DNA of 64,000 nucleotides from Bacteroidales bacterium (lineage in GTDB: Bacteria > Bacteroidota > Bacteroidia > Bacteroidales > UBA932): contig JAGCCX010000049.1 in the NCBI GenBank assembly GCA_017651465.1, forward strand, positions 4,909-68,908. The letters run 5' to 3'. Positions 31,728-59,137 of this stretch are shown one piece after another. The notes below the pieces were generated by a model, which saw only the letters and a list, made by a program, of their open reading frames with translations, had not been told where the DNA came from and did no database searches. A program made the translations under genes and the position numbers. How positions within the stretch are numbered: the first letter of the stretch is position 1; every line of letters begins with the position of its first letter.

Positions 31728-31777
31728 GGTACTGCAATAATAGACATTTTGCGCTTGAATTCAAAATACTTTTTTCG

Positions 31778-31785
31778 TATCTTTG
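31778..31785 (+). promoter_or_regulatory. -7 promoter box (TATCTTTG) for RNase HI/pfkA
   Basis: TAnnTTTG, 12 nt upstream of the ATG at 31798. Confidence 0.45.
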
Positions 31786-31797
31786 AACATTGCCTTT

Positions 31798-32220: not shown

Positions 32221-32223
32221 TTT

Positions 32224-33213: not shown

Positions 33214-33223
33214 TTCTACCGCT

Positions 33224-36463: not shown

Positions 36464-36467
36464 ACCG

Positions 36468-36475
36468 CAAATATA
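36468..36475 (-). promoter_or_regulatory. -7 promoter box (TATATTTG on minus strand) immediately 5' of the prolyl oligopeptidase ATG
   Basis: The plus strand reads caaatata, with only 4 nt between the box and the ATG at 36463. Confidence 0.4.
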
Positions 36476-36487
36476 GAAAAAATGTTG

Positions 36488-42667: not shown

Positions 42668-42805
42668 TCAATAAGTTAAGTCGGAATCCCATTCACCCTC
42701 GCGGTATTCCATATCCTCCAGATTGGACTGGCAAAGCAACTGCCGGGGAACTTGCTCCCCCCAGCAGGCCTGCGGCGCGGAATAATTGTTCGTTTTAGGT
42801 ATCAT
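42668..42805 (-). CDS. sORF family member 1 (45 aa): MIPKTNNYSAPQACWGEQVPRQLLCQSNLEDMEYREGEWDSDLTY
   Basis: This is the C-terminal part of ORF-track entry 42668..42904, taken from the internal ATG at 42805. The TGA stop lies 4 nt before the ATG of the 1097-aa lipoprotein gene. It is homologous to the sORFs at 13993, 45435 and 59009. Confidence 0.5.
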   Translation of the reverse strand: MIPKTNNYSAPQACWGEQVPRQLLCQSNLEDMEYREGEWDSDLTY

Positions 42806-45590: not shown

Positions 45591-46877
45591 TTATTCGCAC
45601 TTGATGGGCCCCTCGATCGATTTGACCTTGTACAGGTTGTTGGTGTCGTCGAGCTGGTATATGTAGAACTCGCCACCGCCGGGGGCTACCCTGATAACGG
45701 TGTGCCCGTTGATATGGCAGCGGTCGTACAGATTGGCGTTGGGGGTTGAAATCACCGGATCGATGCAGGTGAAGTACAACGATACGTCCTCGTAGTAATA
45801 CTTATGGTCGAGAAGGGCTTCCACAGTGCTCAGCATAGGCTGGTCGGTGCGCTGGGCGAAGCTCTGGGTGACCACTACGCGCGGCTTGAGTATGCTCATC
45901 TGTTCTGCAGGCAGACAGTTGACCGACATATGGTGGTCGGCCTTCATAGCCTCGATGGGCCTGCCGATCACCTGGGCCACGGGCACCGCCATCTTGGTGT
46001 TGCCGCCCGCGTCGCCGGCAGTATAATAGTCGAATTTTCCGTAGCTGATAAGGGAGATGCAGGAATTGCCGTTCTCATAAGGAATGGTGCCGCCATATGC
46101 ATCTACTATGGTGCTGCCGTTCCAGTACTCTCCGTTGACGGCGTAGTTGAATATCTTGAAATCGGGGTACTTTGCCTTGTTGTAAAGCAGTACCAGCTGC
46201 TGGTCGGTCCCGGCCTTGAACCGTTCCATCACCAGCCCCTTCTTGGATGTAGCATACTTTACGAACTCGGTGTAGTCGCCGACAGTCTTTGCACTGTAAT
46301 CCTTGCCGCTCTTGTCGATAAAGGCGTACTCGGGGTCGTCGGCGCTCCAGGCGCGGTCGAGGAGCTTTTTGTAGGGAAGAGTAGCATACAGGGCCATCAT
46401 TCCCGTGAGTGTATATCCCTCGGAACTTATGGTAAAGCCCTTGCCGGACGGGGTTCCGTAGTGATCGATGTGGAAGTGGCTCATCACTGCATAGTCCAGG
46501 TAATTGTGTCCCGTAGCTTCGAGGAAGTGCTTCATATAGCGCGCCTGGGTAAAGTAGGCGCGGGTGTTTGCGTCAGGTCTTTGGGTCACGGATACAGGCG
46601 ACGAGGTCGAGGTTACCGTCTCGCCTGCATCAATCATCATCGTGGTGCCGTCGGGCAGAATGAAGAAAGTACATTCTCCGCGGCCGGTACTTATGGCGTG
46701 GATGTCAAGCCAGCCCTCGGCCCACGGGGGGAGGGCTTTCCCCACCTCTGCCTCGAGGGGAGTCCTGATCGTTTCCTGCTTGTCGGGGCCTGTTTTGTCC
46801 CCGTCGTTTTTGTTGCACGACAGCGGGAGCAGGAGAGCCGCCGCTAAAAAATATAAGTAAAATTTTCTCATTGGCAC
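45591..46877 (-). CDS. ComEC-type metallo-beta-lactamase-fold lipoprotein (428 aa)
   Basis: Lipobox LPLSC followed by NKNDGDK. Contains LPPWAEGWLDIHAISTGRGE...IDAGE...SHFHIDHYG...MKADHH...GHTVIRVAPGG...GPIKCE. Confidence 0.85.
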   Translation of the reverse strand: MPMRKFYLYFLAAALLLPLSCNKNDGDKTGPDKQETIRTPLEAEVGKALPPWAEGWLDIHAISTGRGECTFFILPDGTTMMIDAGETVTSTSSPVSVTQRPDANTRAYFTQARYMKHFLEATGHNYLDYAVMSHFHIDHYGTPSGKGFTISSEGYTLTGMMALYATLPYKKLLDRAWSADDPEYAFIDKSGKDYSAKTVGDYTEFVKYATSKKGLVMERFKAGTDQQLVLLYNKAKYPDFKIFNYAVNGEYWNGSTIVDAYGGTIPYENGNSCISLISYGKFDYYTAGDAGGNTKMAVPVAQVIGRPIEAMKADHHMSVNCLPAEQMSILKPRVVVTQSFAQRTDQPMLSTVEALLDHKYYYEDVSLYFTCIDPVISTPNANLYDRCHINGHTVIRVAPGGGEFYIYQLDDTNNLYKVKSIEGPIKCE

Positions 46878-48055
46878 TTGAACGGTCCGTCTACTTGGAG
46901 AACCCGGTATTCAAAGTCGGTGTCGTCCAACAAATATACATAAAATTCTGAGCCACCCGGCATTACGCGAATCACGATATGCCCGTTAATGCCTGCGGCC
47001 TTGTCGTATAGTTCTTTGTGCAGGCTCCTCTGCTCAGGGCCTATATTGGTAAAGTAAAAGTATTTAGGCCCGGGGTACACGGTGTCCGTACCGAGCAGCC
47101 GGGAGAGAGTTTCGATATCGGGCTGGATATCCCTCTCGTAGAAGCTATGGGTCACTACCACCTGCGGACGGAGTATGGTCATAGTCTCGTCCTTCATAGT
47201 GTGGTACGACAGATGATGGTCGGCCTTCATAGCTTCAACCGGCCGGCCGATAGATTGCGCCACCGGCAGGGCGACCAAGGTATTGCCGCCAGCGTCGCCA
47301 CCGGTGTAGTAGTCAAAGTCGCCATAGCTTAGCAGGAAACAGCAGGATGCGCCGTTCTCGCGCATCAGTGTATCTTGGTACACATTCACTCTCTTCTTGC
47401 CGTCCCACACTACGCCGCTGGCCGCATAGTTCCGCACCACCAGTCCGGGATAACGGCAGGGGCGGTGCCGGAGACGTATCTGCCGCCGCGAGCCCACCTT
47501 CATCGCCTCGGCCTTCATCCCGTCGTGCTTGCAGGCGTACTTTACGAACTTTGGATAGAAGCCGCTGCCTTTGGATGAGCTTGGGAGCTGGGCCCCGGCG
47601 AAGTCCGGCCAGGCCCTGTCGAGGAGCCGCTGGAAAGGGATATTGGCCTCCACGCCGGCGATTCCGGTGAGTTCATATCCTCTCACGGGATCGGGCTCCA
47701 TCCATTTCTCAATCTGGCCGATATGGTCGTTGTGATAATGGGTGACGACGGCGTAATCCAGCTTGCCTTTACATACTGACGGCAGGAAGTGCCGGATATA
47801 CCGAGAGTACACCTCCACCGGCCTGGTCTGTCCGTCCGGCTTTGGAGGAACCTTGTCGAATTTCGCGGGCTTGTAATCAACGAACTCGCCTGCATCGACC
47901 AGTACCGAGGTCCCGTCGGGAAGGATTATGAAAGTGCACTCCCCGCGGGATGAATTGATGGCGTGAATGTCGAGGTACCCCTCCTGCCACGGGGGCAGGG
48001 GGGACCCGACAGTAACGGCTGCTGCAACTATGTTTGCCAGCAGAAGAAGCATCAT
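46868..48055 (-). CDS. ComEC-type metallo-beta-lactamase-fold secreted protein (395 aa)
   Basis: Signal-like N-terminus. Contains LPPWQEGYLDIHAINSSRGE...VDAGE...THYHNDHIG...MKADHH...GHIVIRVMPGG...GPFKCQ. 4-nt overlap with the upstream gene and 10-nt overlap with the downstream gene. Confidence 0.85.
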   Translation of the reverse strand: MMLLLLANIVAAAVTVGSPLPPWQEGYLDIHAINSSRGECTFIILPDGTSVLVDAGEFVDYKPAKFDKVPPKPDGQTRPVEVYSRYIRHFLPSVCKGKLDYAVVTHYHNDHIGQIEKWMEPDPVRGYELTGIAGVEANIPFQRLLDRAWPDFAGAQLPSSSKGSGFYPKFVKYACKHDGMKAEAMKVGSRRQIRLRHRPCRYPGLVVRNYAASGVVWDGKKRVNVYQDTLMRENGASCCFLLSYGDFDYYTGGDAGGNTLVALPVAQSIGRPVEAMKADHHLSYHTMKDETMTILRPQVVVTHSFYERDIQPDIETLSRLLGTDTVYPGPKYFYFTNIGPEQRSLHKELYDKAAGINGHIVIRVMPGGSEFYVYLLDDTDFEYRVLQVDGPFKCQ

Positions 48056-49995
48056 TTCTTGGTGACTTTTATGTCGAACACGAAGATACGCGGGGCGTTG
48101 GATGCACCCTTGGGACAGTCGATCTTGAGTTTGGTGTTGGCAGTCAAGCCGCTGGCCTCCAGACGAATGTGCGATACGGGCTTGTCGATGTCGGCATTAT
48201 TCCACGAATGCGGGAAATAGTCGTTGTCAACCAACTCCAGCGTGGTGCCGCCATTCTGGAAGCTGCTCAATGCGGTTGAGGCCTCGGGGAAACTTGCTCC
48301 GGCCTGGCTGGCAGCCACATAGGCGTCTCGGACAATGGTGCCGGAATTGAAAGTTCCGCCATTCTCGAGAATGAAGAACACAGGGTCGGTGGAAGATGTG
48401 GAGAAACGGGATATTTCTATCTCGATTACTGCATCGGTGCTGCCCTGGATGCTGCTGAATGCAGGCGTAGTCATGGCTCCGGCAATGGCTCCGGCGCAGA
48501 GCTGCAATGCACTAGGACGCTCCGAAGCATATGCGAACACCCAGTCCTGAAGGCCATAAGCCTGCATATATTCTGGCTTGGCTTCGGCAGCGGAAGAAGC
48601 ATCCTCGGGATAATCGAAGGTGAAGTTGCCGTTGTTCTGAGTAACAGTCCCAGACGCCGGCAGATACCCGTCGTAAACATCCACTTTGCTGCCGTTGCCC
48701 CCTGCAGGCGCCATATAATCGCCGCCCATTGTGCAGAGGTCAAAGTCTTCATGGAAGATAACGGCGGGATCGGGCTCTTCAACCAGCCGGATATTGTATT
48801 TGGGAGCTGTCGGATCGGAAATGTCGAAGCGCACGTGCATCTTGCCAGGACTGGTAAGGTTGATGGTGAAGGGGTTGTTGGCAACAGCGGTACTTGCCAT
48901 GGTGCCTATGGCCCTCTTGACATAGTAGGTCTTCACGCTTTTTCCTGCGCTCTTTATACCGGCTACGGGCAGAGCAGAGTTATCGGAAGAGATGGAGCCC
49001 AGGCCGCCTGCACCGGAGAAGGTTGCAAAACCGAATGGTTCGCCCTCGAGCTCGACAACGAAGCTGGTGCTTGCGGGAACCTCGACTTCACCTTCGAATA
49101 CCCCGTCGGATACTTCATCCAGGACGCTGCGTTCACCACCTATGTTGATACGGCAAGGAGGTGCTGCGATTTCGCCGCAAAGAACAATCATATCGTGCAT
49201 TTCGGCCCTTGAAACCCCCGTAGTATAGTCGCTGAGGGGCTGGCCTATGACTTCACGGTCTTTGGCGTCGCGGAACGATGCGTTAATGACGGAATAGTCG
49301 GCAGCCGGAACGGGAAGGAAAGCGTAAACGCTCTTTCCCGCAGCACTTACTAGCAGCTCTGCGTCACCCTTATCAATGGCATCGGCAGGCCTGATGCCGC
49401 GGTCGAGCACATCGGACACGGCGCATTTGAAAGTGCCGCTCAGGGCTCCGTCAGGGCTTGAAAGCAGAATTTTGGTAGCATCGGCCGGATAATTGTTGAT
49501 GGTAAGCTTAAGGAAGCCCAGTGCCTGCTTGAAGGCAAGGTTCCAATCGTTGCCAATGGCTGCGAGCATAACTCCCGGATAGGTGGAAGACACACTGGCC
49601 TTGTAGCTGCCGGGTACCTTAAGGCTTATGGACGCTCCGTCGCAGGAAACAGCGGCCGAAGCAGGATATACGGCTACGCTGCCAAGTTCCTTGCCGGAGG
49701 GAATGGTTCCCTTGAAAATGGCGCGTTTGGTATCGCCTGTTCCGTCTAGGCTGAAGGTCACAAGGGTGCCGTCGGTGCAGGCGACTGCAATCTGGTCGCC
49801 TCCGTCCCAAGTCCCGTGCCCTTTCTCGTCCATAAAGGCCTTGGTCTCAAGGTTCTCGAAAGTTGCGAGGAACGATACTTCCCCAGTACGGGAGAAGGTT
49901 TCGTCCGGGACCCAGGATTCGTAGCTATAGTCTTTGCAGCCGGCGAGCAAAGCTGCTGCCGCAGCAAATATTGCAATATACTTTTTCATATCCAT
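48052..49995 (-). CDS. Surface lipoprotein, 647 aa, in the SusE/F position: fimbrillin-like N-module + unknown C-domains
   Basis: Lipobox LLAGC. N-module GHGTWDGGDQIAVA...RAIFKGT...VAVYPASA. It starts 7 nt after the SusD stop. I cannot assign the C-terminal ~350 aa. Confidence 0.78.
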   Translation of the reverse strand: MDMKKYIAIFAAAAALLAGCKDYSYESWVPDETFSRTGEVSFLATFENLETKAFMDEKGHGTWDGGDQIAVACTDGTLVTFSLDGTGDTKRAIFKGTIPSGKELGSVAVYPASAAVSCDGASISLKVPGSYKASVSSTYPGVMLAAIGNDWNLAFKQALGFLKLTINNYPADATKILLSSPDGALSGTFKCAVSDVLDRGIRPADAIDKGDAELLVSAAGKSVYAFLPVPAADYSVINASFRDAKDREVIGQPLSDYTTGVSRAEMHDMIVLCGEIAAPPCRINIGGERSVLDEVSDGVFEGEVEVPASTSFVVELEGEPFGFATFSGAGGLGSISSDNSALPVAGIKSAGKSVKTYYVKRAIGTMASTAVANNPFTINLTSPGKMHVRFDISDPTAPKYNIRLVEEPDPAVIFHEDFDLCTMGGDYMAPAGGNGSKVDVYDGYLPASGTVTQNNGNFTFDYPEDASSAAEAKPEYMQAYGLQDWVFAYASERPSALQLCAGAIAGAMTTPAFSSIQGSTDAVIEIEISRFSTSSTDPVFFILENGGTFNSGTIVRDAYVAASQAGASFPEASTALSSFQNGGTTLELVDNDYFPHSWNNADIDKPVSHIRLEASGLTANTKLKIDCPKGASNAPRIFVFDIKVTKK

Positions 49996-50001
49996 TAAAT
50001 G

Positions 50002-51804
50002 CTAGTAACCGGGGTTCTGGTCTTCTTGATTGATTTTAGGGTTGGTGCGAATTTCCGTGTCGGGCAATGGCCAGAGTTCGTCCTTGCCTGTCTGGAAGAA
50101 CATGTTGATAAGCACCCTGAGGTTGAAGTCCTTGCCGTCCCAAGTCTGGGCCGGGTCGTACGAAACGGTCCAGTTCTCGTCGATGGTCGGCTTGGCGTTG
50201 GAGAGATTGTTCTTGAATGCGGGAGCGTATTGCGGTCCGTTGACCACCTTGGCTGCAAGCGGCCTGCCGTCGGAGAGTTTCCAGCGGCGGATATCGAACC
50301 AGCGAAAGCCTTCGGCACAGAGTTCGACGGTGCGCTCGTAACGCAGAGCGCTGCGGAGTTCCGCCCTGTCGAGAGTAGTGATCTTAGGCATCTTTACCCT
50401 CTGTCGTATCTGATTGATATCGCTCTGGGCCCTCTTCAAGTCGCCTCCGTTCATTTCGATATTAGCCTCGGCGTCGATGAGGAGCAGCTCGGCGTAGCGC
50501 ATTATGCACACGTCAAGGTCGTCCTCATAGCTGGTGGTGAGGGTCTCGCCGTAGTAGGCTTTATCGGCGAACTTGCGCCACAAATAGCCTCCGGGGCCCT
50601 TGGTTCCGTTGGGTCCGTACTCGCTCTTGTTACCATAGACGTCGTTGTTGTTGACCATGGCGTTGGTGTTATAGTCCCTGACCTGCTTGGCGTTGGGGTC
50701 GGTGCTGTACTCAACATTGTTTATACGGGTATCGGAACGCAGGCAGTACAGGTCGAGACGCGGATCCCTGTGGTTCCAAGGGTCCTGCCAGTTGTACAGA
50801 GGTGACTCGGTGATGGACTTGCCGTCGGTGCATTGGAAAGTGTCCATAAGCGCCTGTGAAGGACCGCAGCCGGCGGCGCCGTTGGCAACACGGGAGGAGT
50901 ATGTGTACACCATGGAGTGCACGTTGGAAGCTGCCAGTTTGTTGTATTGGATGGCCCACATCCACTCGTCGCAGGTTTCTCCCTCAAAGCCGAAGAGTTC
51001 GGAAGCGGAGGGCTCTCCCTCAGTTAGGGCGTTGGGATAATAGGTGCAGTCAAGGGGCTCGAGAGTATAAACACCTTCGGAGAGTTCCATCGCTTTGCTC
51101 GAATACTTGGCGGCCTCGGCATAGCGTCCCCAGTTGAGGCAGATACGTGCCTTGAGGGTGTAAGCGGCAGCACGTCCGATACGGCAGGAGCCCCACTTGG
51201 CCTTCTCCCAGCGAACCGGAAGGGCGTCCAACAGGTCGTCGTCCATTTCTTCGAGGATACGGTTGATTACCTGCTCCCTGGGAGTACGCGGGTATGCGTA
51301 GTCTTCCAGTGTAAGGCAGTGGTCTATGAAAGGAATATCGCCATAGAACTGGCAGCCCATATCATAGATATATGCCCTCAGGCACAGGAGTTCGGCCTTG
51401 AACTGCAGGTACGTTTCCTCGGACATCTTATCCTTGATGTCGTCGAGCTTGTCTAGTACCAGATGTATACGTCCGGCAGTCTTGTAGATGCGGCCGTACA
51501 GGTATGTGGCATCGCTGTTGGTCTGTGTGAGGGTGGACGTGACAAAGTAGTCCCAGCTACGCAGGCCCACGCGGTGAGTGCCGATATCGGTGATGTTGTC
51601 GGTGAAGCGGGTAGGGAAGTTGCTGTACTGCAACTCACTGTTCGCCAAGTTCTTGTAGCTTACCAGAACGCCACTCAGGGCCTCTTCCTCGCTGGCGGGG
51701 AAGGTTCCGGTGGACGGTCCGTTGAGGGGATAGCGTTCCAGGGTTTTGTCGCAAGCGGTCAGCGAGAGGACCGATATCATTATGAGTATAATAATCTTTT
51801 TCAT
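50002..51804 (-). CDS. RagB/SusD-family nutrient uptake outer membrane lipoprotein
   Basis: Lipobox LSLTAC. TPR-like SusD pattern (...RAYIYDMGCQFYGDIPF..., ...RYAELLLIDAEANIEMNG..., ...RYERTVELCAEGFRWFDIRRW). Confidence 0.93.
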   Translation of the reverse strand: MKKIIILIMISVLSLTACDKTLERYPLNGPSTGTFPASEEEALSGVLVSYKNLANSELQYSNFPTRFTDNITDIGTHRVGLRSWDYFVTSTLTQTNSDATYLYGRIYKTAGRIHLVLDKLDDIKDKMSEETYLQFKAELLCLRAYIYDMGCQFYGDIPFIDHCLTLEDYAYPRTPREQVINRILEEMDDDLLDALPVRWEKAKWGSCRIGRAAAYTLKARICLNWGRYAEAAKYSSKAMELSEGVYTLEPLDCTYYPNALTEGEPSASELFGFEGETCDEWMWAIQYNKLAASNVHSMVYTYSSRVANGAAGCGPSQALMDTFQCTDGKSITESPLYNWQDPWNHRDPRLDLYCLRSDTRINNVEYSTDPNAKQVRDYNTNAMVNNNDVYGNKSEYGPNGTKGPGGYLWRKFADKAYYGETLTTSYEDDLDVCIMRYAELLLIDAEANIEMNGGDLKRAQSDINQIRQRVKMPKITTLDRAELRSALRYERTVELCAEGFRWFDIRRWKLSDGRPLAAKVVNGPQYAPAFKNNLSNAKPTIDENWTVSYDPAQTWDGKDFNLRVLINMFFQTGKDELWPLPDTEIRTNPKINQEDQNPGY

Positions 51805-51810
51805 GGCTCC

Positions 51811-54800
51811 TTAGAATTTAATGTCAACTCCGAAGGTATAGGTGGATACCAGAGGATACTTAGCACCTTCAGCACCGGCCTCGACGCCTTCGGTGCTGGT
51901 GGTAAACATATTCTCAGGGTCATAACCCTGCCAGTATTTGGTGAGGGTGAAGAGGTTGGTGGCGTTTGCAAACAGGGTCAGGTTGCTTATCTTTGCCGTC
52001 TTTATCAACTTCTTGGGGAATGTGTAGCTGAGCTGCAGGTTCTTGAGGCGGCAGTACGATGCGTCGGCCATCCAAAAAGACGATGTCTTCTTGTTAAGTT
52101 CGCTTGCATAGCTGAGTCGCGGGAACCTGGCGTCGGGGTTGTCGGGTGTCCAGCGGTCGAGGTGCTCCTTGCGGAAAGTTCCTCCCTGAACGCAAGGCTG
52201 TGTGTAGTAACCGCTGAGGTAAGCGTCCACCTTGCCGACGCCTTGCAGCTGGGCGCTGAGATTGAATCCCTTCCAGCCGAAGCTCAGCACCGCTCCGTAG
52301 GTCCAGCGGGGGATGGTGCTGCCGATGATCTGGCGGTCCTGGTCGTCAATCTTGCCGTCTGGTGCGGGAATCTTGTTGCCCTTGGCGTCGAGTATAAAGT
52401 CTCCGTTAGCATCGACTTTGAATTCACCGGCCACATCCTCGTAGATAAGGTCGCCCGGCTTTGTTTCTACGCCGTATTGCGGGCAGGTCGCATTTATCTG
52501 GTCGGCTTCTTCCTGGCTGCGGGCCATTCCTATGCACTTAAGTGCGTACACCGAACGGACCGCGTAGCCTTCTTCGTTGCGCAGGAGGCTTCCGTCCGCG
52601 GTGCCCTTCATATCGACGATCTGGTTGTGCACGTCGCTCAGGTTGGCGTCTATGCCCCAGCGCCAGTCGCCGATGGAGTCGTGATAGCCGATTCCCAGCT
52701 CCCAGCCTATATTACGTACCGTACCGGCATTCTGGTAAGGGGCCGTAAGTCCTATGGTAGAGGGGATGTCCAGTTGCATCAAGATTCCGTAGGTGTTCTT
52801 GTAGTACCAGTCGGCGGTTATGTCGAATTTGCCGAGCAAGCCTGCGTCGATACCAATGTCATACATCTCCGAGGTCTCCCAGGAAATCTCTTCGTTGGCC
52901 AGGTTGTTCAGACCCACGATGGGATAGATAATGTCGGCCGCAGAAATGCTGGAAATAGTGAGGGACTGGATGGTGGGATAATAGTCTGAGCCGATGTTCT
53001 GGTTACCGAGCTGGCCGTATGAAGCACGTATCTTCAATTCGTTGATAGTCTTCTTGGCGCCTTTCATCCAAGGTTCCTCGGTAATGCGCCAGGCCGCAGA
53101 TGCAGAAGGGAAGATACCCCACTGGCGACCCTTGGCAAATCGGGACGAACCATCGAAACGTATGTTGGCCTCGAAGAGGTAACGCTCTTTGAAATTGTAG
53201 TTCACACGCCCGAAGAAGGACGCCAGCGCCCACTGGTAGCGAGCACCGCTGTTCTCTTTGAGTTCATTGTCGGCACCGGCGTTGATGGTATGGTATTGGG
53301 GATACGCGAAATCGCGTCTGTATGCTTCCAGGGTGCGGTTGTCCATATCCTCATAGGAAGCACCGGCAAGCAGCTGGAAATCGTGGGCCTCGGCGAATTT
53401 CTTGTGAACCTTGGCCGTAAAGAGGTAGTTTCCGTACACGGTGTTGCCGTGGTTGTCGCGCAGGGAGTTGTATTCCCTGTTCTTGATGGGGGACACGGTG
53501 CCGTATGGGTCGGAATAATATGTTACCAGATCGGTAAAGTTATTGGTGTAGCTCAAGGTCAGACGCGGTGCAATCGTGCCCTCGAGGGTAAGCCATTTCC
53601 AAGGCTTCCAGGTAAGAGCCGCTGCACCCGATAGACGGTAGGTGTCGGCAGTCACCTGGCCGCCCAGACCCTCATCCATCATAGGAAGCAGGTTTACCGT
53701 TCCTCCGGTAAATGGGGCGTAAGTACCATTGGACCACTGGGCAAGGAATAGAGGGTCACGTGCGTTCATGAATCCGAAGAAGGAATTCTGGTAAGGGCTG
53801 TATTGCCTGCGGCCGAAACTTCCGGAGAGGTCGAAGCGGAATTCGAGATTCTCGTTGATATCCACGTTCATGTTGTTGCGGAAGTTGTAGCGGTGATAGT
53901 TGGAACTCTTGATGATGCCGTTCTGGCTCAAGAAGCCGAAGCTTGTCAGGGAGCGCACCTTGCCGGAGCTGGCGTTGAGGGTGAGGGTGTGGTTGTGAGT
54001 GAGCCCGTTGCCGTTGAGGGCATGCTGACGCCAGTTGACTATGGGGTAGTTGTCGGGGTCGAGGAAATTATTCTTAAGGTAGTTGGAGATGTATTCATCG
54101 GTGTAGATGGATACGCTCCCGTCGTTTTCCGTGGCCTCGCGGTTCAGAATCATGTAGTCCACTGGTCCTACGGTGTCGGGGGTGGTGGTTGGTGTCTGCC
54201 AGCCCACATAGCCCCTGTATCCTACAGACGAGCGGCCTTTGTCGGCGCGCTTGGTGGTGATCAGGATGACACCGTTGGCGGCACGTGATCCATAGATAGC
54301 CGAGGACGCTGCGTCTTTGAGGACGGAAATCTTGTCAATCTGGCTTGCATCTACCGAATTCATGTTGCCTTCGATACCGTCGATGAGCACCAGAGGTGCG
54401 GGGCTGGACTCGCCGAAGGTCCCGATACCGCGGATGCGGATGTTACCTGTATCGGCACCGGGAGCTCCGCCTCCGGTGGTGACTGTTACGCCAGGAATTG
54501 CACCCTGCAAGGCGGTGGAGGCCTGTACAATAGGCTTGTTGTCAAGCAGCTCGGAGGAAATGGCTCCCACTGCACCGGTCAGGTTGACCTTCTTTTGGGT
54601 GCCATATCCTACCACAACTACATCATCCAGGAATTCGGCGTCGGTTTCCATCGAAATGGTGTACTGGGCATTCTTTCCTACAGTGATTTCCTTGTCTGAA
54701 AAGCCCAGGAACGATACAGTAAGTACGTCTCCTTCCTTGGCTGCGATGGCAAAGCGGCCGTCATTGCTGGTAACCGTGCCGTTTTTTGTGCCCTTGACGA

Positions 54801-55218
54801 ATACCGATGCGCCTGGAAGGGGTTCTCCGTCGGAATCGAATACTGTACCTTGAATAAGCGGCTTCTGCTGCCCTTGTGGCTGTTGTACCTTCGGGTCGGA
54901 AGCAGGAATGTTGCTCAGAACAATGTTGCCTTCTATAAAGGAGGCTTTTACATTGGTTCCGCGGAACACTTCTTCAAGCACTGCGAGCACATCTTTGTCG
55001 CGTGCGTCAATACTGATGCGGCGGTTCTTGTCGAAGGCTGCATCGTTGTAGAAGAAGGTGTATCCGCTCTGCTGCTCGATGGTTTTGAGCACGTCCGAGA
55101 CCTTCTGGCTGTCGGCTCGTACTGAGATTGTGCGCGTCTGTGCAGGCAGGAGGGTGGATACCCCCAGCATACACAGCAGTAGCGCAATCTTTGTCATGAG
55201 TTGATAGGTTCTTCCCAT
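51811..55218 (-). CDS. SusC/RagA-family TonB-dependent receptor with N-terminal STN signalling domain
   Basis: 1135 aa. STN-like region (ISVRADSQKVSDVLKTIEQQSGYTFFYND...), CarboxypepD_reg-like region (GTVFDSDGEPLPGASVFVKGTKNGTVTSNDGRF), plug (VVVGYGTQKKVNLTGAV), and barrel ending ...YTFGVDIKF. Confidence 0.95.
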   Translation of the reverse strand: MGRTYQLMTKIALLLCMLGVSTLLPAQTRTISVRADSQKVSDVLKTIEQQSGYTFFYNDAAFDKNRRISIDARDKDVLAVLEEVFRGTNVKASFIEGNIVLSNIPASDPKVQQPQGQQKPLIQGTVFDSDGEPLPGASVFVKGTKNGTVTSNDGRFAIAAKEGDVLTVSFLGFSDKEITVGKNAQYTISMETDAEFLDDVVVVGYGTQKKVNLTGAVGAISSELLDNKPIVQASTALQGAIPGVTVTTGGGAPGADTGNIRIRGIGTFGESSPAPLVLIDGIEGNMNSVDASQIDKISVLKDAASSAIYGSRAANGVILITTKRADKGRSSVGYRGYVGWQTPTTTPDTVGPVDYMILNREATENDGSVSIYTDEYISNYLKNNFLDPDNYPIVNWRQHALNGNGLTHNHTLTLNASSGKVRSLTSFGFLSQNGIIKSSNYHRYNFRNNMNVDINENLEFRFDLSGSFGRRQYSPYQNSFFGFMNARDPLFLAQWSNGTYAPFTGGTVNLLPMMDEGLGGQVTADTYRLSGAAALTWKPWKWLTLEGTIAPRLTLSYTNNFTDLVTYYSDPYGTVSPIKNREYNSLRDNHGNTVYGNYLFTAKVHKKFAEAHDFQLLAGASYEDMDNRTLEAYRRDFAYPQYHTINAGADNELKENSGARYQWALASFFGRVNYNFKERYLFEANIRFDGSSRFAKGRQWGIFPSASAAWRITEEPWMKGAKKTINELKIRASYGQLGNQNIGSDYYPTIQSLTISSISAADIIYPIVGLNNLANEEISWETSEMYDIGIDAGLLGKFDITADWYYKNTYGILMQLDIPSTIGLTAPYQNAGTVRNIGWELGIGYHDSIGDWRWGIDANLSDVHNQIVDMKGTADGSLLRNEEGYAVRSVYALKCIGMARSQEEADQINATCPQYGVETKPGDLIYEDVAGEFKVDANGDFILDAKGNKIPAPDGKIDDQDRQIIGSTIPRWTYGAVLSFGWKGFNLSAQLQGVGKVDAYLSGYYTQPCVQGGTFRKEHLDRWTPDNPDARFPRLSYASELNKKTSSFWMADASYCRLKNLQLSYTFPKKLIKTAKISNLTLFANATNLFTLTKYWQGYDPENMFTTSTEGVEAGAEGAKYPLVSTYTFGVDIKF

Positions 55219-55225
55219 AGTGTTA

Positions 55226-56245
55226 TTAATAGACGATTATTACTTGGCGGCCGGAGATGTTGTCCGGATCCGCACCCTTTAAGTCGGTGTCGAAGTGTAT
55301 TTTGGTAGTGCGCTTGAAGTGTTCAAGTACCACATCCAGGGTCTGACCGCTGAAAATACCAGTGTAGCGGTTGGACAGCAGGGCTTGGTTGCGCACCAGG
55401 AATTCTATGTTGAAGCGGTTGCCTATGGCCCTCAGGGCATCTTCGAGGCTGGTGTTTTCGAGTATGGTCTTGCCGTCTTTCCAAGCCGTGACTGCGGGGC
55501 CGTCGATGTTGCGCCTGGTTAGCTTGAAAGTTTCGGCGTTGAAGCAGAACTGTTCTCCGGGATTCATCGGCACCGTACGGAAGCGGCCTTCCGCATCGGT
55601 GCAGTGCAACAGTACCGATCCGGATACAAGGGTTGTCCTGACTTCGGGCCCGCGGTCTGAGTAGGCTTCTACGTCGAATTCGGTGCCCGTTACTTCTACC
55701 TGCATATTGCCGGTGCTTACAATAAACTTGCGTCCGTTGTCTTTGGCTACGTCAAAATACGCCTCTCCGTCGAGGGTCACTTCTCGGGTGCTGCCAAAGT
55801 GTATGGGGTAGCTCAGGGTGGAATTGGAGTTCAGCCACACCCTGGTCCCGTCGGGGAGGGTGGTGCTGGTGGTCATACCTACCGTAGATTTAATTTGTAC
55901 AGGAGGCAGGCTGTCTTGCTTACGGATTTCGGACGAGAGCCATATTGTGCTGATGAGCAGAGGGATGCTCAGGATGGCTGCGGCCAGCTTGAGCCAGCCT
56001 AACGCGTTGCGGGTGCGGGTTTGGCGCATCCGGGAATGAATGGCGTGCAGGGCGTTGTCGGTGTCGGCTTTCTCGGAGGCCTCGGCAAGGGAGCACAATT
56101 GCTCGAGCCGAAAAAACTGTTCCGCCATCTTGCGGTTGGCCGTGCTCCGGCATATCCACTCGTCAACCTCCCGGCCTTGCTGCTCCGATACTTCCCCCCT
56201 TGCATAGAGCGGGAGAAGCTCCTGTATTGTTTGGTCGTTTAGCAT
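55226..56245 (-). CDS. FecR-family anti-sigma factor
   Basis: 339 aa with one TM (LKLAAAILSIPLLISTIWL). FecR domain ...LPDGTRVWLNSNSTLSYP...REVTLDGEAYFDV..., and a C-terminal domain typical of Bacteroides PUL anti-sigmas. Confidence 0.9.
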   Translation of the reverse strand: MLNDQTIQELLPLYARGEVSEQQGREVDEWICRSTANRKMAEQFFRLEQLCSLAEASEKADTDNALHAIHSRMRQTRTRNALGWLKLAAAILSIPLLISTIWLSSEIRKQDSLPPVQIKSTVGMTTSTTLPDGTRVWLNSNSTLSYPIHFGSTREVTLDGEAYFDVAKDNGRKFIVSTGNMQVEVTGTEFDVEAYSDRGPEVRTTLVSGSVLLHCTDAEGRFRTVPMNPGEQFCFNAETFKLTRRNIDGPAVTAWKDGKTILENTSLEDALRAIGNRFNIEFLVRNQALLSNRYTGIFSGQTLDVVLEHFKRTTKIHFDTDLKGADPDNISGRQVIIVY

Positions 56246-56305
56246 CTTTTGTGGTCTTGTACAGTATAGACAAACGAAAGACTTGTTACCCTAAACGAAA
56301 ATATA

Positions 56306-56313
56306 TATATTTG
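56306..56313 (+). promoter_or_regulatory. -7 promoter box (TATATTTG) for the PUL ECF sigma gene
   Basis: TAnnTTTG, 20 nt upstream of the ATG at 56334. Confidence 0.5.
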
Positions 56314-56333
56314 TGCAGAACGACTGCTTTTTA

Positions 56334-56873
56334 ATGACCGACGACAATCATCTGTTTTCCCTCGTGCGGACTGGAGACAGGAACGCTTATGACAAGCTGT
56401 TCCGGCGTTGGTACGCCCCTATGGTGTCGTATGCACTGCAATTTGTGCCCCTTGCCGAAGCGGAGAATGTGGTTCAGGACGTTTTCTTCGCCCTGTGGAA
56501 AAACGCCCTGGCCATAGAACTGCGCAGCGGCCTGGCGTCGTATCTGTATTCATCGGTAAAGAACCGCTGCCTGAATGTAATCGACCGCAAGGCCCTGTAT
56601 GAACGCTACAATTCGTCTGTAAGGGCATCGGTGGCGGATGCCGTAACGGATAGGGAACTCTATAGCGTAAGGGAGCTTGGCGCGCGGCTTTCCAAAGCAC
56701 TCGGGGAGCTCACTCCCGAGCAGCGTTCGGCCTTCGAAAAAAGCCGCCGCGACGGGCTTAAGTACGAGCAGATTGCCTCTGAGGAAGGGGTGTCGGTAAA
56801 AACTGTGGAATATCGCATCTCGCAGGCACTCAAAAAATTGCGCCTTGCTCTTGCGGATTACTTGCAGACGTAA
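56334..56873 (+). CDS. ECF sigma-70 factor (Bacteroides PUL-associated type)
   Basis: MTDDNHLFSLVRTGDRNAYDKLFRRWYAPMVSYA... Region 4 is LTPEQRSAFEKSRRDGLKYEQIASEEGVSVKTVEYRISQAL. The ORF-track start at 56313 is GTG, so the first ATG (56334) is taken. Confidence 0.9.
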   Translation: MTDDNHLFSLVRTGDRNAYDKLFRRWYAPMVSYALQFVPLAEAENVVQDVFFALWKNALAIELRSGLASYLYSSVKNRCLNVIDRKALYERYNSSVRASVADAVTDRELYSVRELGARLSKALGELTPEQRSAFEKSRRDGLKYEQIASEEGVSVKTVEYRISQALKKLRLALADYLQT

Positions 56874-58948
56874 GGTCCGAATACCGCCTTTACATTGTAC
56901 TCAAGGTCGGAGTCGTCCAGCACATACACATAATATGAGCCGCCACCGGGGAGTACGCGTATGACAACGTGCCCTTGGGTGGCGGAGAACTTTGATACGT
57001 CCACCCCTTCTCCGGTAAGAGTAGTGACGTTGCTCTCCGCCAAGTTGGTGGTAAATATCTTTACTGACGGGCTGGCGCTGAGCACTCTCTTGATGGTGGC
57101 CGGGTTGGGTTGTACGTCCTGCCACACTCCAGCAATGTACACATCGGGCTTGAGGACTCCCAGCAGCTCGGCGCTGTTGGTGTTCTTGGTGCTGTGGTGG
57201 CTGGCCTTCATCGCCTCCACCTTGGACATAACTTTGGAGATGGGCAGTTCGATGTCTTTCCAACTGTGAGTCGAGCGCCCTGTGAACTGGATGTCGCCGC
57301 CGGCAAACCAGTCAAACTTGCCGTAGCTGAGGTGGAATACGCAGGAGTAGATATTCTCGTTTATGTCCCATTCGACGAGGTTGGCAAGGCACTCCGAAGC
57401 GGGCGGGACGTAATTGGTATTGACCGAGGTGCCGCTGCCGGTCCAGATGTTGCCTCCGGCTGCTATTCCCCTTATTACGAATGACTTGTACGCATCCGGA
57501 AAATGCAGCTGGACCAACTGGTCGGTGCGTCCGACGGCAAAATTCTCGCGTACGGTTCCGAAGTTGCGGGCGCTCCAGTCGAGGAAATTGACGTAATTGG
57601 CGTAGCGTTTCTGGCTGCCCTCGTCGCCGTAGTCCACCGAAGGACGGTCGGACCAGTCGCCACGGTCTATCACCTTGTTGATGGGAATGGACATCCCTAC
57701 GTCGGGCAGCCCGTTCACCACGAATCCGCCGGCGTCAAGGTTGGCGCTGCTCATCGGGCGGCCGTTCTTATCGACAGGCTGCCAGCGGTAGGTGCTGTAG
57801 CCGTTGCGCCAGGCACCTATATGGTCGCCGTGATAATGGGTGGCCAGAAAGTAGTCGATCCTGCCGCCGGCAACCACCGGGGCGAAGTGGCGTATGTAAT
57901 TGACTATCACCTGCCCGCAGCTAATCTCCACACTGGGCTTTGAAGCTATTCCGGAAGTGTATCCATACTCGCTCTGGGGCCCTCCGGCGGCATCTACCAG
58001 CATAGTGGTTCCGTCGGGGAAGATGTAGTAGAACGCCTCGCCCCGGCCTCCGTTAATGCCGTGTATGTCGAGGTAACCCTGACGCCACGCGGGCAGAGGC
58101 TTTCCGAGCGCAACCGACACGGGATTGCCGGGCTCGATGCGCACCGGAGTCATCTTGAGAACCTTGGAGCGTTCTATCCCTATCCTTTTTGCCGATACGG
58201 CCTGGAAGCTCCTTCCGGCATCATCGAAGACCGTGGCGGTAAAGCCCTTTTCGAAAGTGGCAGGAGGGAGGATGAACCAAAATTCCGTTGCATTTTCGGG
58301 CGTATCTCCTACGGCCACGGAAGGGGAGCAGGTGAGCGTAAGCTCGGTAAGGGCGTCCTGAGACAGTACCTGCACCTGGGGCGCTCCGTCGGGGCACAGC
58401 ACCTCCAGGCGGCCGGCGAGCGGCTCGGAATTATTGCCCTGCAGGGTGATGCCCGCCACAGTCCCGGTGCCCCAGAGCCGCAGCACGAGGGCTCCGCACA
58501 AGTTTTTGAATGTCAGATGGTTGCCATCCGTACGGGCCGCCATCGGGCTCGCACCGGGAGCAAAGCCCGGACCGATGTAGGTTTGAGTTGAAGGAAAATC
58601 GATGTTCAGAGCTTCGCCGCTCAGGCTGGTATTTGCGCTGTGCGGATAAACGGCAAAGATTTCTCCGCTTCCGCCTTCACCCTCGCCGATGCTTTCGAAG
58701 GAGCCTTCCTTATCTCCGTCGGCGCCCATAAAACGGTACTCACGGCCTGCCCCTCCGCCTTTGAAAACCGTTATTCTGTCGTCCGCATTCCAGTGCTGCT
58801 TGTATTCGCCGTCGATATAGACCTTAGTGCCGGAAGCCTCCTCGAAGGTTGCCTCGATAATGTCTTTGCTACCGGAGATATCCTGCTGTTTGCTGCAAGC
58901 GGAAAGCAGCAAAAGGGCAGTCGGCAGAATTATTCGGAGCAACTTCAT
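56858..58948 (-). CDS. Surface lipoprotein: fimbrillin-like N-module + ComEC-type metallo-beta-lactamase-fold module
   Basis: Signal MKLLRIILPTALLLLSAC followed by SKQQD. N-module YKQHWNADDRITVF...EGSFES...FAVYPHSA. C-terminal module LPAWRQGYLDIHGINGGRGE...THYHGDHIG...MKASHH...GHVVIRVLPGG...GPYVCK. The longest ORF starts at 58975 (MIKIVSLHV...), but a TATCTTTG box at 58955-58962 lies inside that extension, so the ATG at 58948 is preferred. The 3' end overlaps the sigma gene by 16 nt. Confidence 0.83.
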   Translation of the reverse strand: MKLLRIILPTALLLLSACSKQQDISGSKDIIEATFEEASGTKVYIDGEYKQHWNADDRITVFKGGGAGREYRFMGADGDKEGSFESIGEGEGGSGEIFAVYPHSANTSLSGEALNIDFPSTQTYIGPGFAPGASPMAARTDGNHLTFKNLCGALVLRLWGTGTVAGITLQGNNSEPLAGRLEVLCPDGAPQVQVLSQDALTELTLTCSPSVAVGDTPENATEFWFILPPATFEKGFTATVFDDAGRSFQAVSAKRIGIERSKVLKMTPVRIEPGNPVSVALGKPLPAWRQGYLDIHGINGGRGEAFYYIFPDGTTMLVDAAGGPQSEYGYTSGIASKPSVEISCGQVIVNYIRHFAPVVAGGRIDYFLATHYHGDHIGAWRNGYSTYRWQPVDKNGRPMSSANLDAGGFVVNGLPDVGMSIPINKVIDRGDWSDRPSVDYGDEGSQKRYANYVNFLDWSARNFGTVRENFAVGRTDQLVQLHFPDAYKSFVIRGIAAGGNIWTGSGTSVNTNYVPPASECLANLVEWDINENIYSCVFHLSYGKFDWFAGGDIQFTGRSTHSWKDIELPISKVMSKVEAMKASHHSTKNTNSAELLGVLKPDVYIAGVWQDVQPNPATIKRVLSASPSVKIFTTNLAESNVTTLTGEGVDVSKFSATQGHVVIRVLPGGGSYYVYVLDDSDLEYNVKAVFGPYVCK

Positions 58949-58954
58949 AACGTG

Positions 58955-58962
58955 CAAAGATA
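58955..58962 (-). promoter_or_regulatory. -7 promoter box (TATCTTTG on minus strand) for the 56858..58948 lipoprotein gene
   Basis: The plus strand reads caaagata, 6 nt upstream of the ATG at 58948. Confidence 0.45.
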
Positions 58963-58982
58963 CTATTTTTATCATAATTGTG

Positions 58983-59008: not shown

Positions 59009-59137
59009 ATGGAGAAACATCGTTATATACCACCTGTCATTGAGGTCTTCGCCGCTGTCAGCGGGGGAGTGATAGCCGAATCTTCCTCCGAGTCGCTGGA
59101 GATTCCCGAAATGATTGAAGAACAGCTTGAATGGTGA
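59009..59137 (+). CDS. sORF family member 3 (42 aa): MEKHRYIPPVIEVFAAVSGGVIAESSSESLEIPEMIEEQLEW
   Basis: It forms the C-terminal part of ORF-track entry 58640..59137, starting at ATG 59009. Its TGA overlaps the downstream lipoprotein start (TGATG at 59135-59139). It aligns without gaps to the other three sORFs from the conserved Tyr, but has Ala in place of the conserved Cys. Confidence 0.5.
   Translation: MEKHRYIPPVIEVFAAVSGGVIAESSSESLEIPEMIEEQLEW

Follow-up and report, generated by a model that had tools for sequence, protein, structure and literature searches.

The stretch of DNA analysed here, hereafter the window, comprises 64,000 nucleotides of a Bacteroidales bacterium (GTDB lineage UBA932; assembly GCA_017651465.1, contig JAGCCX010000049.1, positions 4,909 to 68,908 of the forward strand). 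It carries a SusC/SusD locus in which no carbohydrate-active enzyme (CAZyme) was recognised, and in which five catalytic domains are assigned from their sequences to phosphoesterase types: four of the metallo-beta-lactamase (MBL) fold and one of the calcineurin type. We read the locus, tentatively and with slightly less than even confidence, as a substrate-induced SusC/SusD uptake system in which phosphodiesterases would replace the usual glycoside hydrolases (GHs), with polymers of polyol phosphates or sugar phosphates as the likely substrates. The evidence comes from the sequence and predicted fold of the MBL proteins, from the genes that accompany their family in other genomes and from the composition of the locus itself.

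The MBL-fold proteins

The original prediction, made by reading the sequence, had noticed two MBL-fold proteins. Both, of 395 and 428 aa, are confirmed, but the count fell short: in an all-versus-all BLASTP comparison of the window proteins, the C-termini of a 961-aa and a 705-aa protein add two paralogs, giving four in the locus. The 428-aa MBL is 47% identical to the 395-aa MBL over 387 aa, residues 590-960 of the 961-aa protein are 37-39% identical to the 395- and 428-aa MBLs, and residues 287-705 of the 705-aa protein are 34% identical to the 395-aa MBL (paralog range 30-34%). The HxHxDH, GD and K-x-x-HH motifs are intact in all four paralogs (HFHIDH, GD and KADHH in the 428-aa MBL; HYHQDH and KAGHH in the MBL part of the 961-aa protein), which at the level of sequence thus retain the complete binuclear-metal motif set. 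Across an alignment of 36 homologs, D54, H106xH108xD110H111, D254 and H280H281 of the 395-aa MBL are invariant.

When the PDB is searched by sequence with the 395-aa MBL, the only meaningful relatives are structures of Pce/CbpE, the teichoic-acid phosphorylcholine esterase of Streptococcus pneumoniae (E = 1.9e-7). A profile of the 36 homologs matches Pce at 1.8e-10, spanning both motif blocks, and the MBL domain of ComEC at 1.4e-3. Foldseek searches with the AlphaFold model of the 395-aa MBL (pLDDT 92, pTM 0.93) fill ranks 1-4 with the same proteins, namely Pce 2bib (8.8e-14), ComEC-MBL 9ic4 (2.9e-13) and then Pce 1wra, while more distant MBL nucleases, including beta-CASP RNases, rank below them. 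The nearest solved relatives are therefore Pce and ComEC-MBL, and not beta-lactamases, glyoxalases or sulfatases. None of the four paralogs carries choline-binding repeats or a fusion to a ComEC channel; they are standalone or joined to the stalk and middle domains described below. Taken together, sequence and model place the MBLs in the Pce/ComEC phosphodiesterase branch of the MBL superfamily, and they are probably active. An anti-phage role was also considered and rejected, as matches to Avs1a and 6A-MBL (E between 3e-3 and 9e-3) are far under cutoff and the context is that of a SusCD locus.

The paralogs differ in their export signals. The 395-aa MBL and its orthologs lack a lipobox Cys, whereas the 428-aa MBL has the lipobox LPLSC-NKNDGD and its orthologs are lipoproteins with acidic residues following the Cys. 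Nearly all loci of the window type encode a first MBL of ~391-401 aa with a plain signal peptide and later MBLs of ~425-440 aa that are lipoproteins, and the window obeys this rule, the 428-, 961- and 705-aa proteins being lipoproteins. The 395-aa MBL is thus predicted to be periplasmic and the 428-aa MBL to lie at the surface, a split that would mirror the division between surface and periplasmic enzymes in catabolic polysaccharide utilisation loci (PULs).

Conservation and gene neighbourhoods of the MBL family

Identical proteins are found on ruminant gut metagenome contigs and in the Bacteroidales metagenome-assembled genome (MAG) GCA_017962465.1. The gene order of the locus is found again in independent metagenome contigs and GTDB genomes, where protein identity is 44-84%, and the arrangement of the locus is therefore not due to chance; a core of SusC, SusD, stalk lipoprotein and MBL recurs at 36-84% identity. 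With one genome scanned per GTDB species, the family is encoded at at least 518 loci. Most carriers are Bacteroidota (ruminant Bacteroidales, Alistipes, Muribaculaceae, Prolixibacteraceae and Bacteroides), with further members in Verrucomicrobiota, Planctomycetota, Acidobacteriota and Proteobacteria.

For the analysis of neighbourhoods, open reading frames (ORFs) were called in the fetched loci and clustered, and recurrent clusters were annotated, in 80 species-level loci. The calls come from a simple longest-ORF heuristic, and some genes are mis-called, for example an over-long SusC in locus L020. The most frequent neighbours of the MBL are SusD (38 of the 80 loci), SusC (35/80), stalk lipoproteins (24/80) and an FAD oxidoreductase of family PF12831 (22/80). 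They are followed by the glycerophosphodiesterase GDPD (14/80), Metallophos proteins (13/80), FecR and extracytoplasmic function (ECF) sigma factors (13/80 and 12/80, respectively), GH92 (10/80), an SSF transporter (9/80), a zinc-dependent alcohol dehydrogenase (Zn-ADH, 8/80) and DUF6772 (7/80). Present at fewer loci are MFS transporters, PfkB kinases, the Fe-ADH_2 family (which includes glycerol-1-phosphate dehydrogenase), NAD-dependent glycerol-3-phosphate dehydrogenase, HAD and histidine acid phosphatases, and SASA esterases; a sugar kinase and polyol dehydrogenases are also among the recurrent partners. The 14 loci with GDPD compare with about 0.7 expected under an assumed background of 3 GDPD genes per 4000 genes, and a gene for GDPD or for a dehydrogenase of the glycerol-3-phosphate or glycerol-1-phosphate families is present in 20 of the 80. 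No nuclease, nucleoside phosphorylase or nucleoside transporter family recurs among these related loci.

The closest cultured relative is the type strain JC136 of Alistipes timonensis, with an MBL of 50% identity. In A. timonensis (DSM 25383) the genes form a SusC-SusD-stalk-MBL-MBL-GDPD operon with overlaps or gaps of less than 15 nt. Locus L014 is more elaborate, with the order SusC, SusD, stalk, MBL, small ORF (sORF), stalk, FAD oxidoreductase, MBL, Fe-ADH_2, MFS and HAD phosphatase. The theme of the family is phosphodiester and polyol- or sugar-phosphate metabolism, and its sub-types point to different substrates. In Prolixibacteraceae and relatives (L044, L045, L049, L052, L057, L063, L071, L087 and L088) the MBL stands in GH92-Metallophos-GDPD-MBL-GH92 arrays, an arrangement which suggests that it may uncap phosphodiester-decorated mannans and which is compatible with phosphomannan-type glycans. 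A cluster found in several phyla (L054, L078, L083, L085, L089 and L093; e.g. L089 10001-18560) combines the MBL with an SSF transporter, DUF6772, a DUF6385-like 111-aa protein, the PF12831 FAD oxidoreductase and Zn-ADH, often with LacI/PfkB, and looks like an uncharacterised catabolic pathway. A literature search returned nothing relevant on DUF6772, on GDPD in PULs or on PF12831 with SusC.

These results bear on the earlier suggestion that the locus may target a non-glycan or phosphodiester-linked polymer, such as extracellular nucleic acid, teichoic-acid-like polymers or phosphoglycans. The identity of the MBLs, by sequence and fold of Pce type, together with the GDPD and phosphatase neighbourhoods, gives the phosphodiester part of this suggestion real support. 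Teichoic-acid-like polymers and phosphoglycans fit the context, which includes glycerol-phosphate dehydrogenases; extracellular nucleic acid does not, given that no nuclease or nucleoside gene recurs.

Architecture of the locus

The genes of the locus are as follows (strand in brackets).

56334-56873 (+): ECF sigma factor, 179 aa if translated from the ATG, 186 aa from the GTG at 56313 with which the ORF begins
55226-56245 (-): FecR-type anti-sigma factor, 339 aa; Pfam FecR 2.5e-17, FecR_C 3.3e-12
51811-55218 (-): SusC-type TonB-dependent transporter, 1135 aa; STN, CarbopepD_reg_2 and Plug domains
50002-51804 (-): SusD-family lipoprotein, 600 aa; SusD_RagB 1e-46, SusD-like_3
48052-49995 (-): 647-aa lipoprotein in the SusE/F position; no Pfam match
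46868-48055 (-): 395-aa MBL; Lactamase_B 8e-6, plain signal peptide
45591-46877 (-): 428-aa MBL paralog, lipoprotein (426 aa as called on contig L001)
45435-45569 (-): sORF2, 44 aa, of a small-ORF family found ahead of accessory lipoprotein genes
42929-45415 (-): 828-aa GLUG lipoprotein; stalk domain and GLUG-repeat region
42668-42805 (-): sORF1, 45 aa, same family as sORF2; hidden Markov model (HMM) match 1.7e-20
39370-42663 (-): 1097-aa lipoprotein; stalk, middle domain, region of residues ~630-850, C-terminal SGNH-like module
36488-39373 (-): 961-aa lipoprotein; stalk, middle domain, C-terminal MBL paralog
56858-58975 (-): 705-aa lipoprotein flanking the sigma gene; stalk and C-terminal MBL paralog, Lactamase_B 4.9e-5
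59009-59137 (+): candidate third sORF of this family, ahead of the 787-aa gene; weak HMM match, E = 0.14
59131-61494 (+): 787-aa lipoprotein; stalk and calcineurin-like phosphoesterase, MetallophosN 1.7e-19, MetallophosC 1e-11
34367-36463 (-): S9 prolyl oligopeptidase, bordering the locus downstream of the 961-aa gene

ORF listing and Pfam searches agree with the original prediction of a sigma gene divergent from FecR, STN-SusC, SusD, the 647-aa lipoprotein and the MBLs, in an operon that is tight, with junctions of 6-7 nt gaps or 4-10 nt overlaps. The same strand runs on, as had also been described, through sORF2, the GLUG gene, sORF1 and the 1097- and 961-aa genes. On the far side of the sigma gene lie the 705-aa gene (-), the 787-aa gene (+) and rpoC; the 787-aa protein is the divergent calcineurin-type phosphoesterase seen by the earlier reading, an assignment confirmed by its MetallophosN and MetallophosC matches.

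The sigma factor matches Sigma70_r4_2 (Pfam, 3.5e-16) as well as Sigma70_r2 and Sigma70_ECF, and the same 179-aa gene is called on contig L001. It is encoded on the plus strand, divergently from the minus-strand operon that includes FecR. The STN domain of SusC occupies residues 53-101 (Pfam, 4.6e-10). Sigma factor, FecR and STN-SusC constitute a trans-envelope sensing module with all of its defining features, so that the architecture proposed at the outset is real. STN-SusC with FecR and an ECF sigma factor is the standard substrate-sensing architecture of Bacteroides. Of the two features by which a PUL is usually recognised, the adjacency of susC and susD is present (the genes are 6 nt apart, and SusD has the lipobox ...LTAC-DK), and a co-located CAZyme was not detected (Pfam/NCBIfam; structure models cover the 395-aa MBL and the 647-aa protein).

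The absence of a recognisable CAZyme signature, noted in the earlier reading by eye, held up in systematic searches. No GH, polysaccharide lyase (PL), carbohydrate esterase (CE) or sulfatase family was found in any locus protein at Pfam or NCBIfam thresholds, by sequence search of the PDB or in the two structure models. Structure searches for cryptic CAZyme folds with these models returned the MBL fold for the 395-aa protein and a stalk/sandwich fold for the 647-aa protein. Nor was a GH, PL, CE or sulfatase family found elsewhere in the 64-kb window, where most ORFs of at least 200 aa were scanned.

Stalk domain and accessory lipoproteins

After a lipoprotein signal peptide, the 647-, 828-, 1097-, 961-, 705- and 787-aa proteins share an N-terminal stalk domain of ~250 residues (BLASTP); their surface exposure is predicted from sequence. 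The nature of the stalk is seen in the AlphaFold model of the 647-aa protein (pLDDT 86, all-beta), the N-terminal ~260 aa of which match Bacteroides fimbrillin/Mfa-like folds: Foldseek gives a probability of 1.00 over ~290 residues to 3sy6, 3t2l, 3ufi, 4h40 and 5nf4, a match which assigns the fold only. The C-terminal beta-sandwiches of this protein have weak CBM-like neighbours only, and it has no match in Pfam or by sequence in the PDB. It occupies the SusE/F position and adjoins SusD in related loci too, and is therefore best read as a surface binding protein, predicted from the model to be non-catalytic and to consist of the stalk and beta-sandwiches. A nuclease reading was rejected: the NCBIfam model T9SS_DNase_Rie scores 18 bits against a cutoff of 260, and the region models as a beta-sandwich. 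In the distant homolog P0156 the same stalk is joined to a GDPD domain, which shows the stalk to be a general display module that serves phosphodiesterases too.

The accessory lipoproteins are less well covered by known families. Residues 280-828 of the 828-aa protein contain four stretches matching Pfam Glug (2.3e-5), and its family is present in 16 of 95 fetched loci, seven of them in the set of 80 GTDB genomes. Between the 1097- and 961-aa proteins identity is 34% across residues 18-514, and the two have a middle domain in common as well as the stalk. This middle domain has no match in Pfam (E<=10), in 24 homologs scanned singly or in a PDB profile search. A by-eye guess that it was a FISUMP (Fibrobacter-type) or Lcl_C lectin domain was dropped after these searches came back empty; sub-threshold matches of that kind occur in only two distant stalk-family proteins. 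Homologs of the 961-aa protein, of ~960-1020 aa, often have the same architecture, some with a Lactamase_B match, and most middle domains are joined directly to an MBL, which suggests that the domain is a binding module serving its fused enzyme. At the C-terminus of the 1097-aa protein, GNSF and DNAH motifs and a sub-threshold match to DUF4886 (E = 0.021, 14 bits against a cutoff of 26.7) are consistent with a putative SGNH esterase. The 787-aa protein resembles the GLUG and 705-aa proteins at its N-terminus and has a weak match, under cutoff, to the NCBIfam 2',3'-cyclic nucleoside monophosphate (cNMP) phosphodiesterase SpdA (2.6e-7). An ortholog of the 705-aa protein, of ~697 aa, flanks SusC in L012 and L072. 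Sequence searches of the PDB gave no match for the 1097-aa, 828-aa and 787-aa proteins or the SGNH-like segment.

The stalk also occurs outside the locus. An 899-aa lipoprotein at 11282-13981 (-) of the window has the same stalk N-terminus with leucine-rich repeats (LRRs) and an sORF-like gene upstream, and the combination of stalk and sORF is therefore not restricted to the SusCD locus.

A family of small ORFs

Directly upstream of stalk-type lipoprotein genes lie ORFs of 38-56 aa that form a conserved family. They have a basic N-terminus, a Y-x-x-P-x-hydrophobic motif and the motif (L/V/I)(L/I)C(Q/E/S)S, followed by an acidic tail and, close to the C-terminus, a W. They lack a signal peptide and match no family in Pfam or NCBIfam. 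With an HMM built from eight members, all significant matches are on the operon strand and in gaps of the ORF calling that immediately precede genes for stalk or GLUG lipoproteins, at many loci (e.g. L008 12466-12597; L012 11322-11459, 16888-17007 and 20318-20452; L018 12438-12710). Homologs of sORF2 occupy the same position in L012, L016-L018 and L048, and orthologs of sORF1 are present in L008, L019, L012, L018 and L048. Among sORF orthologs the ratio of non-synonymous to synonymous change (pN/pS) is 0.3-0.6, with synonymous change near saturation; for sORF2 it is 0.3-0.5. In an exhaustive profile search of 1.84 billion representatives, only seven small-protein clusters match, plus low-complexity noise.

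Two ORFs of the window are weaker members, at 59009-59137 (+) before the 787-aa gene and at 13993-14142 (-) before the stalk-LRR gene. The former has a Y-x-P-P motif and a C-terminal W, and a close 43-aa relative in the protein library (P0194). The sORFs appear to be linked to stalk lipoproteins and not to the substrate. The spacing of Y-x-x-P, ~17 residues before the conserved Cys, recalls lasso-peptide leaders, a reading rejected on three grounds: the loci lack a lasso cyclase and protease, there is no Thr at the penultimate position, and core positions 7-9 show no conserved acidic residue. Within sORF1 there is an 11-bp GC-rich stem-loop with a T-rich tail (window 42740-42767, -). A scan of the region for promoters and terminators gave counts no different from those of shuffled sequences, with terminator-like elements not clearly in excess (27 against 18.8 +/- 5.5).

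Flanking genes and other features of the window

An S9 peptidase is also found at the edge of the locus in a relative of 66% identity, upstream of the sigma gene in that case (L007/L008/L027 1-1200), so that the adjacency is retained despite rearrangement. In the window a 396-aa Metallophos protein with weak similarity to purple acid phosphatases (33170-34360, +) adjoins the S9 gene. A Metallophos gene also borders the locus in L007 and L027; its product shows no BLAST similarity to the window protein. About 5 kb from the locus is a gene for a radical-SAM/SPASM protein (30460-31533, -), of which a 52% identical homolog lies less than 10 kb from the MBL in an Alistipes MAG (L081 17984-19057), through synteny or chance.

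Long antisense ORFs at 31591-33318 (-), 45804-46847 (+), 36599-37645 (+) and 35378-36550 (+) encode Ala/Gly/Val/Arg-rich sequences and were discarded as high-GC artefacts; the first, of 575 aa, opposes the real genes for PFK (32224-33213) and the Metallophos protein. Overall GC content is ~56%. The window encodes peptidases of families S46 (22184-24289), S9, S51 (as an ATP-grasp fusion, 14261-16201) and S33, and the presence of these peptidases, with no GH among the ORFs scanned, hints at a largely asaccharolytic organism.

Proposed function and alternatives

In the function that we propose, the first step would take place at the surface, where the lipoprotein MBLs (428, 961 and 705 aa), the calcineurin-like enzyme and the SGNH-like esterase would act, enzymes tethered by the shared fimbrillin-like stalk cutting or trimming a phosphodiester-linked polymer. 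Fragments would be caught by SusD and the 647-aa protein and imported by SusC, and hydrolysis would be completed in the periplasm by the 395-aa MBL, which has a signal peptide only. Ligand-occupied SusC would signal through its STN domain to FecR, releasing the sigma factor and inducing the locus. As the locus has no glycosidase and the family is tied to GDPD and glycerol-phosphate enzymes, the best candidate substrate is a polymer with a phosphodiester backbone. Narrowing this to teichoic acid (wall or lipoteichoic, from Gram-positive cell-wall debris in the rumen) is a speculative step that we consider somewhat unlikely to be right; as a hypothesis, D-alanyl or acetyl esters of teichoic acids would give the SGNH module a role.

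Several observations weigh against this proposal. GDPD, glycerol-phosphate dehydrogenase and an inner-membrane transporter are all missing from the locus in the window, and the substrate class is therefore drawn from the gene neighbourhoods of the MBL family, in relatives that share 36-52% identity and have different loci. The activity of the MBL family and the induction of the locus are predictions from sequence and model, and the surface exposure of the lipoproteins is one from sequence. Pce strips a phosphocholine decoration and does not cut a backbone, and ComEC-MBL is a DNase, so the fold permits several phosphodiester substrates. In other branches of the family the MBL sits with GH92, sulfatase-like or FAD-oxidoreductase/DUF6772 genes, and specificity therefore clearly varies within it. 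Lastly, the GLUG region, the middle domain of the 1097- and 961-aa proteins and residues 630-850 of the 1097-aa protein could hide a glycan-active fold.

Among the alternatives, a locus that scavenges small organophosphodiesters rather than a polymer is the one we take most seriously, unlikely as we judge it to be. Glycerophosphoinositol, glycerophosphocholine or fragments derived from glycosylinositol phosphorylceramides (GIPCs), that is, head groups of phospholipids and sphingolipids, would be imported by SusCD, and phosphodiesterases would then liberate phosphate or polyols. Pce hydrolyses small phosphocholine esters too, and the calcineurin-like phosphoesterase of the window and the GDPD of its relatives would suit such substrates. 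The PusCD loci of Flavobacterium johnsoniae provide a precedent, combining a SusCD-like pair, ECF/anti-sigma and PI-PLC (phosphatidylinositol-specific phospholipase C), calcineurin-like and GDPD-like enzymes with no CAZymes, and pusCD-like pairs stand beside glpQ in gut Bacteroidota (bioRxiv 10.64898/2026.09.03.749221). What speaks for a polymer instead is the set of six large surface lipoproteins with binding-type modules (647-aa protein, GLUG, middle domain), typical of the capture of polymers or particles, and the predicted tethering of several enzymes at the surface, where those of Pus loci are predicted to be periplasmic; moreover, the rumen is assumed not to be phosphate-limited, and no Pho-type regulator was seen. 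A glycan PUL after all, in which one or more of the GLUG beta-helix, the middle domain and residues 630-850 of the 1097-aa protein would turn out to be a new type of glycoside hydrolase or lyase and the MBLs, phosphoesterase and SGNH module would strip esters or decorations such as phosphocholine, glycerol-phosphate or mannose-1-phosphate, seems improbable. These three regions carry no assignment, Pce itself removes a decoration, and debranching or uncapping comes naturally to the branches that place the MBL between GH92 alpha-mannosidases or near GH2, GH106 and SASA esterases. Yet four MBL copies to no detectable CAZyme in the 64-kb window is an odd ratio for the removal of decorations, and the fusion of most middle domains to MBLs suggests that they are binding modules of that enzyme.

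Growth on extracellular nucleic acids is a slightly fainter prospect. The MBLs would then be ComEC-like surface or periplasmic DNases or RNases, SusCD would import oligonucleotides and the calcineurin-like enzyme would be a 2',3'-cyclic-nucleotide or nucleotide phosphodiesterase. A backbone that phosphodiesterases alone can cut does suit a locus without glycosidases, and among fold matches the ComEC nuclease domain 9ic4 comes second, followed by beta-CASP RNases; the weak SpdA match of the 787-aa protein points the same way. The family profile, however, is far closer to Pce (1.8e-10) than to ComEC (1.4e-3), the partners that recur in the 80 loci are GDPD, glycerol-phosphate dehydrogenases, GH92, a sugar kinase and polyol dehydrogenases rather than nuclease or nucleoside families, and the T9SS (type IX secretion system) nuclease match on the 647-aa protein reaches only 18 of 260 bits in a modelled beta-sandwich. 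A regulated surface-display or adhesion island, put forward in the original prediction as the alternative to a catabolic locus, now looks less likely, and we give it very little weight. Here the stalk lipoproteins would be adhesins and the MBLs would remodel the cell's own surface or that of its neighbours, for instance through removal of phosphocholine in the manner of Pce, with no nutritional role. The stalk has the fold of Bacteroides fimbrillin and 'cell adhesion' proteins, GLUG- and LRR-type modules occur on the same stalk elsewhere in the window, and Pce is a virulence and colonisation factor, not a catabolic enzyme. Against this stand the conserved core of SusC/SusD, binding protein and MBL (the pair being present in 35-38 of 80 species), the predicted periplasmic MBL copy, with signal types split as in catabolic loci, and the dehydrogenases, kinases, transporters and phosphatases of the relatives, which indicate uptake and catabolism.

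The fullest version of our proposal is a dedicated system of rumen and gut Bacteroidales for eating polymers with a phosphodiester backbone, chiefly teichoic and lipoteichoic acids from Gram-positive neighbours, in which Pce-like MBLs would play the role of GHs, some at the surface on the fimbrillin-like stalk and one in the periplasm, and a gene for a ~45-aa peptide would accompany each accessory stalk lipoprotein; we regard it as doubtful in this complete form. Few bacterial polymers in gut and rumen are more abundant than teichoic acids and related polyol-phosphate polymers. Within the literature searched there was no Bacteroidota uptake system for them and no teichoic-acid or MBL-based SusCD locus. 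If true, the proposal would describe a major route by which carbon and phosphorus are recycled from Gram-positive cell-wall debris, would extend SusCD-like organophosphorus import (PusCD) from soil to anaerobic gut communities, and would make the ~45-aa peptides a new small-protein partner of Bacteroidales surface lipoproteins. The pairing of sORFs with stalk lipoproteins bears on Bacteroidales surface-protein biology separately from the question of substrate. A large uncharacterised MBL family gains a testable activity, for which Alistipes timonensis DSM 25383 is a culturable entry point.

Comparison with known systems

Pce/CbpE (2bib, 1wra) is the best match of the window MBLs by sequence, profile and fold. 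Shared features are the IH-x-IN N-terminal strand, HxHxDH, GGD and K-x-x-HH, and an extracytoplasmic location. The window MBLs differ in that they are only 14-15% identical to Pce in structural alignment, have no choline-binding repeats, and carry a C-terminal beta extension of ~90 residues as well as insertions, the TM-score being 0.49 when normalised to the 395-aa query. The C-terminal MBL nuclease domain of ComEC (9ic4), second in fold, has the motifs of the same sub-clade (K-x-x-HH); the window MBLs are not fused to a competence channel, match it more weakly by profile (1.4e-3) and have neighbourhoods with no link to DNA.

With classical Bacteroides PULs for host glycans the locus shares STN-SusC, SusD, FecR, the divergent ECF sigma factor, a lipoprotein in the SusE/F position and the split between surface and periplasm. 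Its catalytic set is different, being composed of phosphoesterases and one SGNH-like module, with no GH, lyase, sulfatase or recognised CE detected. GlpQ/GDPD teichoicases, such as GlpQ of Bacillus subtilis, hydrolyse polyol-phosphate polymers for nutrition. The role proposed here for the MBLs is the same, and GDPD is operonic with the MBL family in relatives, e.g. A. timonensis; GDPD is a TIM barrel, in contrast to the MBL fold, and the window locus has no GDPD gene.

A parallel in overall organisation is offered by the Pus (phosphate utilisation system) loci of Flavobacterium johnsoniae, described in a September 2026 preprint, where growth on phosphatidylinositol and glycerophosphoinositol depends on PusCD1 and PusCD2, and where SusCD-like pairs, with polyphyletic PusD variants, are accompanied by ECF/anti-sigma, PI-PLC, a calcineurin-like phosphodiesterase and a GDPD-like phosphatase (bioRxiv 10.64898/2026.09.03.749221). 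A Pus locus is defined by a SusCD-like pair accompanied by phosphatases or phosphodiesterases, with CAZymes scarce or absent, a definition that also describes the window locus. In both, a SusC/SusD-like pair has phosphodiesterases or phosphatases in place of CAZymes, together with an ECF sigma/anti-sigma pair and a calcineurin-like phosphoesterase, and the pusCD-like pairs beside glpQ (GDPD) in gut Bacteroidota match relatives of the window locus. The window enzymes, by contrast, are four Pce-type MBLs and not PI-PLC or PhoA, and are mostly predicted surface lipoproteins on a fimbrillin-like stalk where those of Pus loci are predicted to be periplasmic. The locus has many accessory binding-type lipoproteins and small ORFs, and it belongs to an anaerobic Bacteroidales of the rumen, whereas the Pus loci come from a rhizosphere organism starved of phosphate. 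A CAZyme-free SusCD locus with phosphoesterases is thus already known, and what is new here is the enzyme family, its predicted surface display, the accessory lipoproteins, the sORFs and the habitat.

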